Of a stretch of DNA of 64,000 bases, positions 12,187 through 62,737 are shown in pieces (positions within the stretch are counted from its first letter, which is position 1; each line of letters begins with the position of its first letter). Below the pieces are notes generated by a model. That model saw only the letters and a list, made by a program, of their open reading frames with translations. It did no database searches and had not been told where the DNA came from. The position numbers and the translations under genes are program-made. The DNA comes from a bacterium (GTDB lineage Bacteria; Patescibacteriota; Doudnabacteria; UBA920): the NCBI GenBank assembly GCA_016699995.1, contig CP064996.1, positions 412,330-476,329 of the forward strand, in the 5' to 3' direction.

Positions 12187-12801
12187 TTATTTTGATTCAG
12201 CAGCGGGGGACGCGGCGCAGCAGCGCTTGGCTCCGAGCCATGAATCGTGCCCTTCTGCTGGGTGATTGTACCAGATCCGAGCGCTGGCCACGTCTGCCAT
12301 GTGGCATAGAGCGGCCAGTTCGTTCATAACTCTGTTGCGGCTGGAATAATCCTTGCCTTCGCCTTCTACGTACTTCATTGCATTCAGTTGCATATCGTTG
12401 AGCTCAATTCCGTATTTCTTGAGCAGCGCCATGCGGAATTTATGCTGAGCGCGCTTTTGGGTAAGATGAGGTTTTACATGGAGCACGCCGTCTTCGTCGA
12501 TGTCGTACTTAAAAGGTTTTTCGACATCATGTAGAAATGTAATCAACAGCACGTCTGATAAAGTAAAAGACAGTTTTCTGTAAGCAGATAAAGTGTTGTA
12601 CAGCACCATGCCGATATTCATGATTTCGGCGATGTGATCATGGTAACCGCCGGGCCAAGCTTGGTGGTTGTTAGTCGAGCCCTGGGTTTTTTTGAATAGA
12701 TCAAAATTTTCTTTGTATAAGCGTATGCATCCCAGCTGATTGGGGCCGTGTATCCAACGCAACAGATCGTGCACAGGGTAAGATCTTTGCAAAGCAGTCA
12801 T
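12187..12801 (-). CDS. HD-domain metal-dependent phosphohydrolase
   Basis: H...HD...D motifs: GGYHDHIAEI, FLHDVEKP, LCHMADVAS. The track ORF (to 12933) runs upstream through the tRNA-Tyr exon. The real start MTALQRSYPV at 12801 follows a GGAGGAAT SD. Confidence 0.7.
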   Translation of the reverse strand: MTALQRSYPVHDLLRWIHGPNQLGCIRLYKENFDLFKKTQGSTNNHQAWPGGYHDHIAEIMNIGMVLYNTLSAYRKLSFTLSDVLLITFLHDVEKPFKYDIDEDGVLHVKPHLTQKRAQHKFRMALLKKYGIELNDMQLNAMKYVEGEGKDYSSRNRVMNELAALCHMADVASARIWYNHPAEGHDSWLGAKRCCAASPAAESK

Positions 12802-14578: not shown

Positions 14579-14929
14579 TTAGTACCTGCGGCCGTACGAG
14601 CCATTCCCGGTCGGCTGCCACTGAACACATGCTTCCGGAGGCGGGTTTGGGGTTCGGTACTGACCTTTGAAAACCCTTACCATACCAGTCTGGCTATGCA
14701 TCAGCTTCTTAAGCAAAGTTTCGGGCAGACTGCTCGTTTCTACCTGGAATGGCTTGCCATCGGTGTAAGTTGCTTCGCCTCGGTTGCCAATGCGAAAAGG
14801 TGCTGCGTACCGATCAAGGTTGTTCTTGTCTAAGTGCAGCGAAAAACCATCGGGCTTGTCGCCAAAAAACTCATCCGCTTCCAGATATACCTGGCAGTAT
14901 ACCTTGGATGGTACTGTATTTTTTTTCAT
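14579..14929 (-). CDS. hypothetical protein (116 aa)
   Basis: Strong GGAGG SD 5 nt upstream of the ATG, and a terminator downstream. No recognisable motif. Confidence 0.5.
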   Translation of the reverse strand: MKKNTVPSKVYCQVYLEADEFFGDKPDGFSLHLDKNNLDRYAAPFRIGNRGEATYTDGKPFQVETSSLPETLLKKLMHSQTGMVRVFKGQYRTPNPPPEACVQWQPTGNGSYGRRY

Positions 14930-15177: not shown

Positions 15178-15444
15178 TTAATCATCTTTCTCAATAAACG
15201 TTTTATAGATGGCTACACCCCAGGCTATAAGGCACAGCCCAGGGTTCGTCTCCCAGTAGAACGTGGTGGCGATGATAGCATTTAAGAAGTAGGGGATAAA
15301 TACCCAAGCTGCGAACCCTAGCAGGGAAATGCCAGGGTCAGACGGGACTGTGTCCAGTGTAAATAGAGTCGTTAGTCTTGGAAAAAAAAATGCTGCAACT
15401 ATAATGATAAGTCCAGTGTCTGGATGTGCTTGCCAGAATTCCAT
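15178..15444 (-). CDS. small integral membrane protein (possibly YqaE/Pmp3-like)
   Basis: 88 aa with two hydrophobic helices. Weak resemblance only. Confidence 0.4.
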   Translation of the reverse strand: MEFWQAHPDTGLIIIVAAFFFPRLTTLFTLDTVPSDPGISLLGFAAWVFIPYFLNAIIATTFYWETNPGLCLIAWGVAIYKTFIEKDD

Positions 15445-31564: not shown

Positions 31565-31596
31565 AAAAAACCTCGATCAGTTTGATCGAGGTTTAT
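31565..31596. terminator. bidirectional terminator after secA
   Basis: AACCTCGATCA-GTT-TGATCGAGGTT. Confidence 0.65.
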
Positions 31597-31832
31597 CCAT
31601 AATCGCCCACATTTGTCTCCCTGGTATGACATACTTCACAGTACCAGCCGACACAACCGAGCTTCCTAATACCTTCGTTTTTAGATCTGGCGTAACGGAT
31701 AATTCTTCTCATGAACGTTTGACAGTGGACATGAAAGAGTGAAATACCCCTAAGTAGTTCTCTATATTCATGTTCACCGTAGTTGCTCCCTTCCCATTCA
31801 GACTCAATTTCTGAATCTCTTTGATAAGACAT
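31593..31832 (-). CDS. small Cys/His-rich hypothetical protein (about 79 aa)
   Basis: AAGGAGGTAAT SD before MSYQRDSE. HVHC...CVGWYCEVCH suggests a possible metal-binding site. Confidence 0.4.
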   Translation of the reverse strand: MSYQRDSEIESEWEGSNYGEHEYRELLRGISLFHVHCQTFMRRIIRYARSKNEGIRKLGCVGWYCEVCHTRETNVGDYG

Positions 31833-31903: not shown

Positions 31904-32212
31904 ATGGCTTTAACAACAGAGAAAAGAATCAAGCAATTGATGATGAAAGGTCAAGAAGAAACCAAACACCTTTCTAATCCGAACGTCATTTTACAATCAG
32001 AGTATCATCAGAAAGTTAAGGAATTTGGCCAAGAGGCGATTAAATCTCTATTCCAATTATTGAAGGACAATGAAGGGTGTTCAATAGCAATTTTTGGTTT
32101 ACTTTCAGAGATACACGGCCGTGGGCCAATTATTCCGCTGGATAAACGCGGCAACATCACTTTCATCCGAAAACGATGGCTGCGTCTAGGCAAAGTCCAT
32201 GAGCTATATTAA
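31904..32212 (+). CDS. hypothetical protein (102 aa)
   Basis: TTAAGGAGGAAT SD, with a terminator hairpin immediately after the stop. Confidence 0.45.
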   Translation: MALTTEKRIKQLMMKGQEETKHLSNPNVILQSEYHQKVKEFGQEAIKSLFQLLKDNEGCSIAIFGLLSEIHGRGPIIPLDKRGNITFIRKRWLRLGKVHELY

Positions 32213-57420: not shown

Positions 57421-57672
57421 ATGCAGGACCAAATCCCAGACAATAACGAGAAAAAACCCGCTTATTCTGCACGAACCCTCGCTATTGCAGTAGAATTTGG
57501 TTTTATTATTGCCATCCCATTGGCTGGAACTACGCTCTTAGGAAAGTGGCTCAGCGTTAAATACGACCAGCCATTCTACTTATACGGTGCAATTATAGTG
57601 GCAATCATCCTTAGCAGCACTATTCTGACCGTCCGGATCAAAAAAATTTACGACGAAATAATTAAAAAATAA
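57421..57672 (+). CDS. AtpZ/AtpI-like small membrane protein preceding the ATP synthase operon
   Basis: 83 aa with two TMs, immediately upstream of atpB. Confidence 0.5.
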   Translation: MQDQIPDNNEKKPAYSARTLAIAVEFGFIIAIPLAGTTLLGKWLSVKYDQPFYLYGAIIVAIILSSTILTVRIKKIYDEIIKK

Positions 57673-60010: not shown

Positions 60011-61522
60011 ATGCAAACAGATAGCATTATTCAAAAATTAAAAGACCAAATTCAAGGCTTTGGCCCAAAAGCCAATGTTTCCCATGTAGGAACAGTAATA
60101 GAAGTAGGGGACGGCATTGCTAAAGTTTCCGGTCTCTCCGAAGTGAAGTCAATGGAAATGTTGGATTTTGGCGGCGGAGTTATGGGCGTGGCTTTGAACC
60201 TCGAACAGAATAGCGTTGGAGCAATTATTTTGGGAGAATTCCAGCACGTAAAGCAAGGCGACACTGTAAAATCTACGGGACAGATCTTATCTGTACCAGT
60301 AGGGGAAAGCCTCATCGGTCGAGTAGTAGGCGCACTAGGAAATGCCAAGGACGGCAAAGGGGAGATCTCTTCAAATACTCAGTACCCTGTAGAGAAAATC
60401 GCCCCTGGCGTAATAACCCGCCAGTCGGTATTCCAGCCGGTACAAACCGGCATCAAAGCCATTGATGCTTTAATTCCGATTGGCCGCGGCCAGCGTGAGT
60501 TGATCATTGGCGACCGCCAAACCGGCAAAACTGCCGTGGCAATCGACACGATCATTAACCAAAAAGGACAAGACATGATCTGCGTATACGTAGCCGTGGG
60601 TCAAAAAGAAAGCAAGGTAGCCAAAATCGTGGCCGAACTCGAAGCCCGAGGAGCGATGGACTACACAATTGTCGTATCCAGCAGCGCCAGCGAACCAGCA
60701 GCGCTCTCTTACATCGCGCCGTATTCTGCAACAGCGATGGCCGAATACTTTATGGATCAGGGCAAGGACGTATTAATCGTATATGATGATCTCTCTAAAC
60801 AGGCTGTAGCGTACCGCGAAATTTCCTTGTTGCTGCGCCGACCGCCAGGGCGCGAAGCTTATCCGGGGGATGTATTCTACCTCCACTCCCGCTTGCTAGA
60901 ACGAGCAGCAAAGCTAAACGAAGATCATGGCGGCGGTTCGATTACGGCATTGCCGATTATCGAAACCCAGGCGGGAGACATCTCCGCTTATATCCCTACG
61001 AATGTAATTTCTATTACCGATGGACAAATCTTTTTGGAAAGCGATCTGTTTTATAAGGGCATTCGCCCGGCTGTAAACGTAGGTACTTCTGTATCCCGCG
61101 TAGGCAGCTCTGCTCAGACCAAAGCCATGAAGAAAGTAGCCGGCAAGCTGAAACTTGCATTAGCTCAGTTCCGGGAATTAGAAGCGTTTGCCCAATTCGG
61201 TTCGGACTTAGACGAAGCTACTCGCCAGCAGCTAGAACTTGGCCGCCGGTTAACAGAGCTGCTCAAACAGCCTCAGTACTCTCCGGTCGCGATGGAAAAG
61301 CAAGTAATTGCTTTGTACGCGGTTAATAACGGCTTTATGGATGATGTACCAGTAGAAAAGATTTCCGAGTTCGAATCCAAACTAACGGAATATATGGAAA
61401 CTACCGGCAAAGATACCTTAAGAGCAATTGCCGATAAAAAAGAATTAACAGAAGAAGTTGAAAGCAAATTAAAAACCCTGCTCGAACAATTCAAGCAGGG
61501 CTGGGAAACAATGGCTTCCTAG
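60011..61522 (+). CDS. atpA: F0F1 ATP synthase subunit alpha
   Basis: GDRQTGKT Walker A and [26 protein letters not shown]. Confidence 0.95.
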
Positions 61523-61523
61523 G

Positions 61524-61784
61524 TCAGGAAGCAACCGCGGACTTGCCGCGGGTAAAGATGAAGGAGATCATGCCGAGAATCGACACGATTCCGAGGACAG
61601 GAAGGAGTACCGCATGCGCGATATTCCATTCCACTCCCTCAGCGACCCAGCTGAGGATGGCCGCCGCTATGAGAGCGGGGGCGATGGCCAATGCTGCAGA
61701 CTGCAGCTTGACGCTGGCCCCACGGTAGAACCAAGCCACCAACATTATCACAACTGCCGCCACGAGCATTGCTAATCCTGTCAT
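61524..61784 (-). CDS. small two-TM membrane protein encoded antisense in the atpA-atpG gap
   Basis: Track ORF 61524-61904. The preferred start MTGLAMLVAAVV at 61784 follows GGAGGAAAAGAAG, downstream of a perfect TTGACA-N17-TATAAT promoter. The coding sequence is visibly GC-richer than its flanks. Confidence 0.5.
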   Translation of the reverse strand: MTGLAMLVAAVVIMLVAWFYRGASVKLQSAALAIAPALIAAAILSWVAEGVEWNIAHAVLLPVLGIVSILGMISFIFTRGKSAVAS

Positions 61785-61818
61785 CTTCTTTTCCTCCAGA
61801 TTTGATCTATATGAATAT

Positions 61819-61847
61819 ATTATAGCATAAAGTTTAGAATTTGTCAA
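61819..61847 (-). promoter_or_regulatory. consensus sigma70 promoter (TTGACA-N17-TATAAT) driving the antisense small ORF
   Basis: Plus-strand TGTCAA at 61842-61847 and ATTATA at 61819-61824, with an exact 17 nt spacer. Confidence 0.6.
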
Positions 61848-61879
61848 GTATAACCGAAAAGCACTAAATTCACAGTAAA

Positions 61880-62737
61880 ATGGCATCAACCCAAGAACTA
61901 ACAAGACGCATAAAATCGATTAAAAGCACGCGCAAAATTACCCGCGCGATGCAGCTTGTTAGTAGTGCAAAAATGCGCAAAAGCCAAGCAGTAGCAATGT
62001 CGAGCCGAGCTTATGCCCATCTGGCATGGGAGTTGATCAACAATGTAGGAAGCAAGTCTCGAGAGCACAAGCTGTTTAAAAGCTATCCAAAAGCAAAAAA
62101 AGTCGGCATCATTCTGGTAACAACCAACCGCGGCTTAGTAGGTGGATTCAACACCAATCTAATTAGAAAACTGGTCAAAGAGGAGCAGCTGGAACCAGAA
62201 CTTATTTCCGAATTAATTGTTGTGGGTAAAAAAGGAAGAGAGGCAGCGGTCAGGCTCAATAAGACGATTATCGCCGACTTCCCCAAAATGGATACTACTA
62301 TTCCCGTCAAAGAGGTTTATCCGATTATCAAAATGCTTACCGATATCTATAACAGCGGCGAATATAAAAAAGTCTACATTGTCTATAACCACTTTGTTTC
62401 GATGCTGGTTCAGGATCCGAAGGTAAAACAACTGTTGCCGATAATCCCCAAGTCTCAGCACGGCACCCAAACCATTGGCTCCGACGTTCTGTTCGAACCC
62501 AGCCCTCAAAAAGTACTGGATCACTTACTCCCACGCATTTTAGAATCTCAGGTATATCAGGCTATTCTAGAAAGCGACGCGAGCGAACACAGCGCCCGCA
62601 TGATGATGATGAAAAACGCTACAGATGCTGCCGGAGACTTAATTGACGACTTAACATTAACCTTTAACCAACTTCGCCAAAGCAAGATTACGACGGAACT
62701 TTCCGAAATCACTGCAGGCCGAATTGCACTAGAATAA
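61880..62737 (+). CDS. atpG: F0F1 ATP synthase subunit gamma
   Basis: MASTQELTRRIKSIKSTRKITRAMQLVSSAKMRKSQ and C-terminal ITTELSEITAGRIALE. Confidence 0.9.
   Translation: MASTQELTRRIKSIKSTRKITRAMQLVSSAKMRKSQAVAMSSRAYAHLAWELINNVGSKSREHKLFKSYPKAKKVGIILVTTNRGLVGGFNTNLIRKLVKEEQLEPELISELIVVGKKGREAAVRLNKTIIADFPKMDTTIPVKEVYPIIKMLTDIYNSGEYKKVYIVYNHFVSMLVQDPKVKQLLPIIPKSQHGTQTIGSDVLFEPSPQKVLDHLLPRILESQVYQAILESDASEHSARMMMMKNATDAAGDLIDDLTLTFNQLRQSKITTELSEITAGRIALE

Follow-up and report, generated by a model that had tools for sequence, protein, structure and literature searches.

Background

A noncontiguous operon has been described in S. aureus, where it comprises menE-menC-MW1733-ytkD-MW1731 (Saenz-Lahoya et al. 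2019, reviewed in PMC7154746). According to the account given in that review, the interspersed and the polycistronic mRNAs of this men locus regulate each other reciprocally, by polymerase collision and by RNase III cleavage (PMC7154746). We have analyzed a locus of comparable layout in the ATP synthase operon of a bacterium of the CPR (Patescibacteria), using a stretch of 64 kb that is referred to below, at its full length, as the window. At this locus a small minus-strand gene lies between atpA and atpG. Since the flanking atp genes are on the other strand and no plus-strand terminator stands between them, the arrangement matches that of a noncontiguous operon. ATP synthase operons are among the most conserved of bacterial gene clusters. 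Small hydrophobic peptides opposite a complementary RNA are also found in type I toxin-antitoxin systems, in which the toxins are usually shorter than 60 aa and consist of a single helix. From the sequence and its comparison with related genomes, we consider it likely that the small gene is a genuine, independently expressed membrane-protein gene and an old feature of its clade, and that its presence makes atp a noncontiguous operon.

Organization of the locus

An earlier note on this DNA had described a 357-bp gap between atpA and atpG that encodes an 86-aa protein on the opposite strand, under a consensus promoter and a strong Shine-Dalgarno (SD) sequence. All of these features were recovered here. 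The atpA gene (F1 alpha subunit, 503 aa; 60011..61522, plus strand), taken from the ORF list, matches the Pfam accessions ATP-synt_ab_N, ATP-synt_ab (E = 6.6e-88) and ATP-synt_ab_C and ends at 61522. The atpG gene (F1 gamma subunit, 285 aa; 61880..62737, plus strand), which matches Pfam ATP-synt (3.2e-89), starts at 61880. Between them the 86-aa ORF runs on the minus strand from an ATG at 61784 to 61524, and its stop codon is one base from that of atpA. In full, the plus-strand genes atpB-E-F-H-A are followed by the small ORF on the minus strand and then by plus-strand atpG-D-C. The stop codons of atpA (TAG) and of the small ORF (TGA) are both contained in a perfect 8-bp palindrome, GCTTCC-TAG-G-TCA-GGAAGC (61514..61532), which is not conserved in the relatives. 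Plus-strand ORFs within the gap are short, a terminator scan found no plus-strand terminator-like site in it, and no Rfam family matched anywhere in 61300-62000. At the head of the operon, an 83-aa ORF (57421-57672, plus strand) immediately precedes atpB, whose start it overlaps; this ORF has no precomputed Pfam hit on record and may be a counterpart of AtpI or AtpZ.

An independent Logan assembly (L001) is 100% identical to the window across 7.4 kb, so the locus is not an assembly artefact. The closest named relatives of its atpA are found in Candidatus Doudnabacteria MAGs (74-77% identity). In GenBank the small ORF is entered on a 943-kb contig as QQS22482.1, 'hypothetical protein IPM19_02505 [bacterium]', with a length of 120 aa and a start at 61886. 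That start is probably wrong and the 86-aa start is better supported, because a gene starting at 61886 would begin ahead of its own promoter and overlap atpG.

Promoter and ribosome binding site

The small ORF is preceded by a predicted sigma-70-type promoter, TTGACA-17-TATAAT (61819..61847, minus strand), which matches the consensus at 12 of 12 positions and carries a TGn extended -10. It is the only perfect match within the 64 kb; when one mismatch is allowed there are 6 matches, against 0.54 expected by chance. Transcription is predicted to start near 61812, and the stretch between promoter and ORF is a short, AT-rich leader. The SD sequence GGAGGAAAAG (61788..61797, minus strand) contains GGAGG and lies 3 nt upstream of the ATG. 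It is the strongest SD of a genome in which such sites are rare: of the 47 long ORFs of the window, 31 have none at all, and a core of at least 5 nt is found in 0. When the leader was folded, the predicted accessibility of the SD varied with the length folded.

Other GGAGG-led small genes on the minus strand of the window include those at 31593-31832, 14579-14929 and 12187-12801. The motif also precedes a small plus-strand ORF (31904-32212) and internal starts of long plus-strand ORFs. A further small membrane protein gene of 88 aa, at 15178-15444 on the minus strand, has a near-consensus promoter, TTGACA-17-TAAAAT, at 15512-15484.

The same slot in related lineages

Contigs of relatives, all from independent assemblies, were traced from atpG homologs with 73-88% identity. 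In 10 of 12 related CPR lineages, the window included, the same slot holds a minus-strand ORF of 55-86 aa that has a GGAGG. The nine others are L095 (61 aa), L096 (69 aa), L098 (69 aa), L099 (81 aa), L101 (55 aa), L102 (81 aa), L103 (60 aa), L082 (56 aa) and L105 (71 aa). A promoter with a 17-nt spacer and a score of 10-12/12 is present in 7 of the 10 lineages, again counting the window, and the stop codon of the small ORF falls 1-16 nt from atpA in 8 loci. The two lineages without the unit are L097, where a 252-aa plus-strand gene fills the gap, and L104, where atpA and atpG are 10 nt apart. The unit was never found in the more distant genomes examined, which have short gaps or plus-strand genes instead. 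In this search of relatives for the insertion, which the earlier note had proposed, the slot is occupied in most lineages and the protein sequence is not shared.

The unit in the relatives also bears on whether atpG has a promoter of its own, which the earlier note had suggested might lie in the same AT-rich region. In the window atpG lacks an SD and its best plus-strand promoter match is 9/12; across the loci, plus-strand matches near atpG are poor, at 7-11 of 12, and their position varies. In L096, L098, L099 and L103 the -35 box of the antisense promoter is only 1-4 nt away from the atpG ATG, an arrangement that would leave no space for an atpG promoter and speaks, like the absence of a plus-strand terminator from the gap, in favor of read-through from upstream. 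Four loci have weak plus-strand -10-like hexamers 9-15 nt ahead of the atpG ATG. Because of these boxes, and because most genes are without an SD, a separate short-leader or leaderless atpG transcript could also be made. The sequence evidence for atp read-through across the antisense unit appears mixed.

Several other irregularities were seen around atpG in this group. Unrelated plus-strand orphan genes, none with a Pfam match, lie between atpA and atpG in L097 (2227-2985), L004 (5506-5961 and 6849-7259) and L002 (5500-5745 and 5971-6417), and in L004 also after atpG. It appears that the junctions of the atp operon serve this group as general landing sites. In L082 (3908-4091) and L002 (5751-5800), additional, truncated copies of the atpG 5' end are found upstream of the real atpG, and each is interrupted by a GC-rich element resembling a palindromic repeat. 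There are two such copies in L082, the first of which is identical at 22 of 23 positions to the atpG start of L095 and not to that of L082 itself; in L002 the truncated copy stands ahead of an insertion of ~650 bp with plus-strand ORFs. Such copies suggest an insertion of elements into the 5' end of atpG, or recombination there. In L003 (5576-6670) and L002 (6453-7505), from Doudnabacteria-like and Saccharibacteria-labelled MAGs, GC-rich insertions in frame extend atpG to 350-364 aa. The L003 gene has two related inserts of ~40 aa ending in ...DVSSGSPP[RK]VGG, which are reminiscent of the in-frame Rickettsia palindromic elements. The enlarged gap of L096 (2505-2700) contains repeated ctgcggaatcgttcgaagataatattccata units and inverted tggaatattatcttc in a MITE-like arrangement, located between atpA and the small ORF's own terminator. 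Finally, positions 1-80 of L100, just upstream of atpG at the start of the contig, are very GC-rich and look structured.

A predicted terminator within the atpA coding sequence

An intrinsic-terminator-like element of the antisense gene lies at 61464..61502 on the minus strand. Its 13-bp stem (61502..61474) is followed by UUUUUAAUUU as the feature was listed, and by TTTTTAATTT in the terminator scan, which places it 21 nt past the stop of the small ORF. The hairpin is embedded in the atpA codons for LLEQFKQGW, within the final ~45 nt of that gene. Because this predicted terminator sits inside atpA, the antisense transcript would have to overlap the atpA 3' end, as had been proposed for it. The calculated folding energy is -25.3 kcal/mol for the minus-strand RNA and -15.2 for the plus-strand RNA; the difference comes from two G.U pairs of the stem, whose counterparts in the plus-strand RNA are A.C mismatches. 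The minus strand has a U-tract after the hairpin and the plus strand has none. The G+C-rich stem-loop, the U-tract on the minus strand and the compensatory changes across lineages are those of a rho-independent terminator.

This asymmetry between the strands recurs in nine lineages with an atpA tail of the form LxxFKQG[WF]. Their hairpins have folding energies of -14 to -25 kcal/mol as minus-strand RNA and of -7 to -15 as plus-strand RNA, and 91.5% of the cells in the stem alignment are paired on the minus strand, compared with 75.2% on the plus strand. The nine-lineage stem contains 19 G.U cells, each of which is an A.C mismatch on the plus strand, and there are none in the opposite sense. 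Double changes occur at 3 stem pairs, with a covariation score that was reached by 0 of 500 shuffles.

The hairpin also follows the presence of the antisense gene. It is absent from L104, L083 and L002-L004, which lack the unit (0 to -6 kcal/mol), and in L097 it has decayed to -3.8 kcal/mol despite an identical LEQFKQGW peptide. L105 has no hairpin in atpA, and its small ORF has an intergenic terminator of its own. L096 has both, the atpA hairpin and a textbook minus-strand intergenic terminator, GGGAAC-TTCG-GTTCCC-T6. The co-variation of terminator and antisense gene is the strongest argument for real transcription of the minus strand.

Evidence for selection

The identity of atpG at four-fold sites is 0.27-0.40 among the lineages. 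These sites are saturated, so unselected DNA should share nothing. Since a unit in the same slot is found in 10 of 12 lineages in spite of this saturation of synonymous sites, the slot is evidently old and not a private, recent insertion. The same comparison bears on the simplest alternative, namely that the small ORF and its consensus signals arose by chance in a spacer that codes for nothing, or that the gene is an artefact of annotation. An orphan product without homologs would be expected under that explanation, and the ORF of the window taken alone has a 6% chance of being open. However, an ORF is open from the SD-linked ATG in every locus, with a per-locus chance of 0.003-0.07, and the summed log10 P for nine loci (the window and eight relatives, L105 left out) is -14.2, which corresponds to a joint P of ~1e-14. 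Promoter, SD, ORF and terminator recur in ten lineages despite saturation, and the hairpin is strand-specific with compensatory changes. The comparative data effectively refute a chance origin, to which we give a negligible probability.

Selection can also be sought at the protein level. The frequency of T at codon position 2 is 0.38-0.50 in eight of the nine ORFs tested, and the products of the same eight have one to three clear hydrophobic segments and basic termini. The product of L105, which is outside this test, reads as a two-helix hairpin. The enrichment of T at this position points to protein-level selection for hydrophobicity.

A different function would be served if the product that matters were the antisense RNA, or the act of antisense transcription, with the atp operon as its target. 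The ORF might then be translated merely to stabilise the RNA or to shield it from Rho, and its sequence would drift freely because translation served the RNA only. Such a role would account for the conservation of promoter, SD, open frame and terminator next to a peptide sequence that is not conserved, for a lineage (L102) whose product is not hydrophobic, and for ORFs that fill nearly the whole transcript, ending in 8 loci right beside atpA as described above. It does not sit well with the enrichment of T by codon position or with the transmembrane-hairpin layout and basic termini of eight of the nine ORFs, which argue that the protein is selected. Nor would it call for a strong SD, a signal that is rare in this genome. 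On balance a primarily regulatory RNA seems unlikely to us.

Composition of the small ORF

The small ORF had been described as noticeably richer in GC than the neighboring genes, and windowed GC values bear this out in stronger form, since it is the GC-richest 261-nt stretch of the entire 64 kb. Its GC is 0.579 and its GC3 0.678, whereas the 47 long ORFs have a mean GC of 0.434 and a GC3 of 0.26-0.52. Among 13,218 windows of 87 codons from host genes the maximum GC3 is 0.655, and none equals the small ORF. CTC is used for 6 of its 11 leucines, compared with a share of 8% in the host. The amino acid content alone is no explanation for the high GC.

Horizontal acquisition of the gene had also been raised as a possibility. 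The foreign-looking GC3 of the coding part agrees with it, and the presence of the unit in 10 of 12 lineages contradicts a recent insertion private to this genome. Because only the coding part is compositionally foreign, with a GC3 above every host window, a horizontal replacement of the ORF content is plausible but unproven. The foreign GC3 hints at such a replacement in at least the lineage of the window. As divergence is saturated, weak constraint alone might also have brought about the loss of similarity among the ORFs.

The predicted protein

The 86-aa product had been expected to be a two-helix membrane protein. Hydropathy analysis gives three hydrophobic segments instead (1-25, 25-51 and 51-80), and a single-sequence AlphaFold2 model (pLDDT 80) likewise has three helices, at 2-19, 25-49 and 53-85. 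RGASVK and EGVEWN form the predicted loops, which are short, and the chain ends in TRGK; the positive-inside rule would place the N terminus outside and the C terminus inside.

Homology searches with the 86-aa sequence, which had been suggested as a check, returned no relative besides itself. A word-indexed search of 5.8 billion proteins matched only the query, and a full HMMER search of 1.84 billion representatives yielded no true homolog. The single extra match in the latter, P0003, was dropped, since the tandem repeats of this protein multiply a weak match eightfold. No homolog was found in scans of metagenome and viral contigs or among PDB sequences, and nothing scored above threshold in Pfam, NCBIfam, PADLOC or PHROGs. 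The positional counterparts are no more similar to one another. BLASTP of the window product against L082 gave nothing, Smith-Waterman comparisons with shuffling of the 36 pairs among nine counterparts stayed at z < 3 throughout, and there is no detectable similarity of the products even where atpG is 86-88% identical. All counterpart ORFs belong to singleton or near-singleton clusters. The product of L102 is basic and not hydrophobic; its JGI label, KpsC/LpsZ, was not reproduced by Pfam, NCBIfam or PDB. The idea of a function shared by these proteins is weakened by the dissimilarity of the products and by the non-hydrophobic product of L102.

Two more specific roles for the peptide can be considered in this light. 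The first is that of a membrane-depolarising peptide resembling a type I toxin, in which case read-through of atp would neutralise its mRNA and a drop in atp transcription would free the toxin. The peptides are indeed small, hydrophobic and lineage-specific, the gene would be fully overlapped by a transcript of the other strand, and type I toxin families are highly divergent. The window product has 86 aa and three helices and those of the relatives have 55-81 aa and mostly two, so that they exceed typical single-helix toxins in size, and no toxin model was matched in Pfam, NCBIfam, PADLOC or PHROGs. There is also no conserved plus-strand small-RNA promoter within or beside the ORF. A consensus promoter and a strong, apparently unhidden SD are unlike the signals of tightly repressed toxins, the folding of the SD being length-dependent as noted above. 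A toxin-like role is in our estimation improbable.

The second is a lineage-specific role in the F1Fo ATP synthase, be it as an accessory subunit, in assembly or, as the earlier note had suggested, in modulating the complex. The position within the atp operon is conserved clade-wide, and small membrane proteins often bind larger membrane complexes, both of which count for such a role. However, an interface for a specific partner would be expected to keep its sequence, which these products do not, no match to a family of the AtpI or AtpZ type was found, and the gene is missing from two members of the clade (L097 and L104). The antisense orientation, moreover, predicts expression that is anti-correlated with the operon and not coordinated with it. 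We regard a part in the F1Fo complex as very improbable.

Proposed function of the antisense unit

The sequence and its comparison among relatives together demonstrate a putative unit of transcription and translation on the minus strand, conserved and nested between atpA and atpG. The unit would consist of a consensus promoter, an AT-rich leader, a strong SD, a membrane-protein ORF and a terminator that works on the minus strand only and is located in atpA. It appears to have been kept vertically in one Doudnabacteria-related clade of the CPR. What selection seems to keep is the set of expression signals, the open frame and a mostly hydrophobic, helix-hairpin character, and not the amino acid sequence. 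Any atp transcript that reads through the gap would contain, at its atpA-atpG junction, the complement of the entire small mRNA. The small gene and read-through of atp (atpGDC and the atpA 3' end) might then be mutually antagonistic in their expression, through polymerase collision and cleavage of duplex RNA. The peptide itself may be a generic small membrane protein, which we judge likelier than a toxin-like or F1Fo-binding role.

As an extension of the preferred reading, it is conceivable, if tentative, that the clade keeps the antisense slot as such, with the signals under strong purifying selection and the peptide free to diverge or to be swapped, as the foreign GC3 of the window's ORF and the non-membrane product of L102 would indicate. 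The slot could then be a conserved switch of ATP synthase expression, with the gene in it mainly a vehicle, or, equally, a nursery or landing pad for small membrane proteins.

If the preferred reading is right, a wrong-way gene kept for so long in an atp operon suggests an unrecognised control of energy metabolism in genome-reduced, unculturable CPR bacteria. The locus also offers a clear case, visible by comparison, of a coding sequence overprinted with a terminator that would act in one direction only and that decays with the loss of the antisense gene while the encoded peptide is unchanged. A gene that is conserved by its position and expression signals, and not by its sequence, belongs to a class that homology-based annotation misses.

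Comparison with known systems

Type I toxin-antitoxin systems (hok/sok, tisB/istR, fst, txpA/ratA) resemble the locus in having a small, hydrophobic and fast-evolving peptide opposite a complementary RNA, and the atp transcript could take the role of the antitoxin RNA. The window product, with 86 aa and three helices, falls outside the usual size and helix number of such toxins. Unlike the repressed signals of those systems, the promoter and SD of the CPR gene are strong, and no dedicated promoter for an antitoxin RNA was found at the locus.

AtpI, AtpZ, KdpF and CydX are likewise small membrane proteins encoded inside the operons of membrane complexes. Their genes are on the same strand as the operon, co-transcribed and conserved in sequence, in contrast to the CPR gene, which is antisense and has its own promoter and terminator. 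It matches no AtpI or AtpZ family in Pfam or NCBIfam and lies between atpA and atpG, not at the head of the operon.

In excludons an mRNA doubles as an antisense RNA to an adjoining opposite operon, as it would here. The classic examples have long UTRs that extend across their neighbors, whereas the overlap with coding sequence at the CPR locus would cover only ~50 nt of the atpA 3' end, together with the intergenic part.

The closest likeness is to the noncontiguous operon. A protein-coding gene of the opposite strand lies among same-strand genes of one pathway, its small mRNA would be complementary, over its full length, to an untranslated part within the polycistronic transcript, and the S. 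aureus and CPR cases both concern energy metabolism. A literature search found no report that ties this architecture to ATP synthase or to CPR bacteria. The two cases differ in that co-transcription and reciprocal regulation have been demonstrated in S. aureus, whereas for the CPR atp genes we infer them. They differ further in that the CPR arrangement is conserved across a clade with an interspersed ORF of no conserved sequence, and in that the CPR terminator is embedded in the coding sequence of the upstream gene. The architecture is thus of a known kind; what goes beyond the described examples is the clade-wide conservation of position, the sequence-unconstrained ORF and the overprinting of the terminator on atpA.
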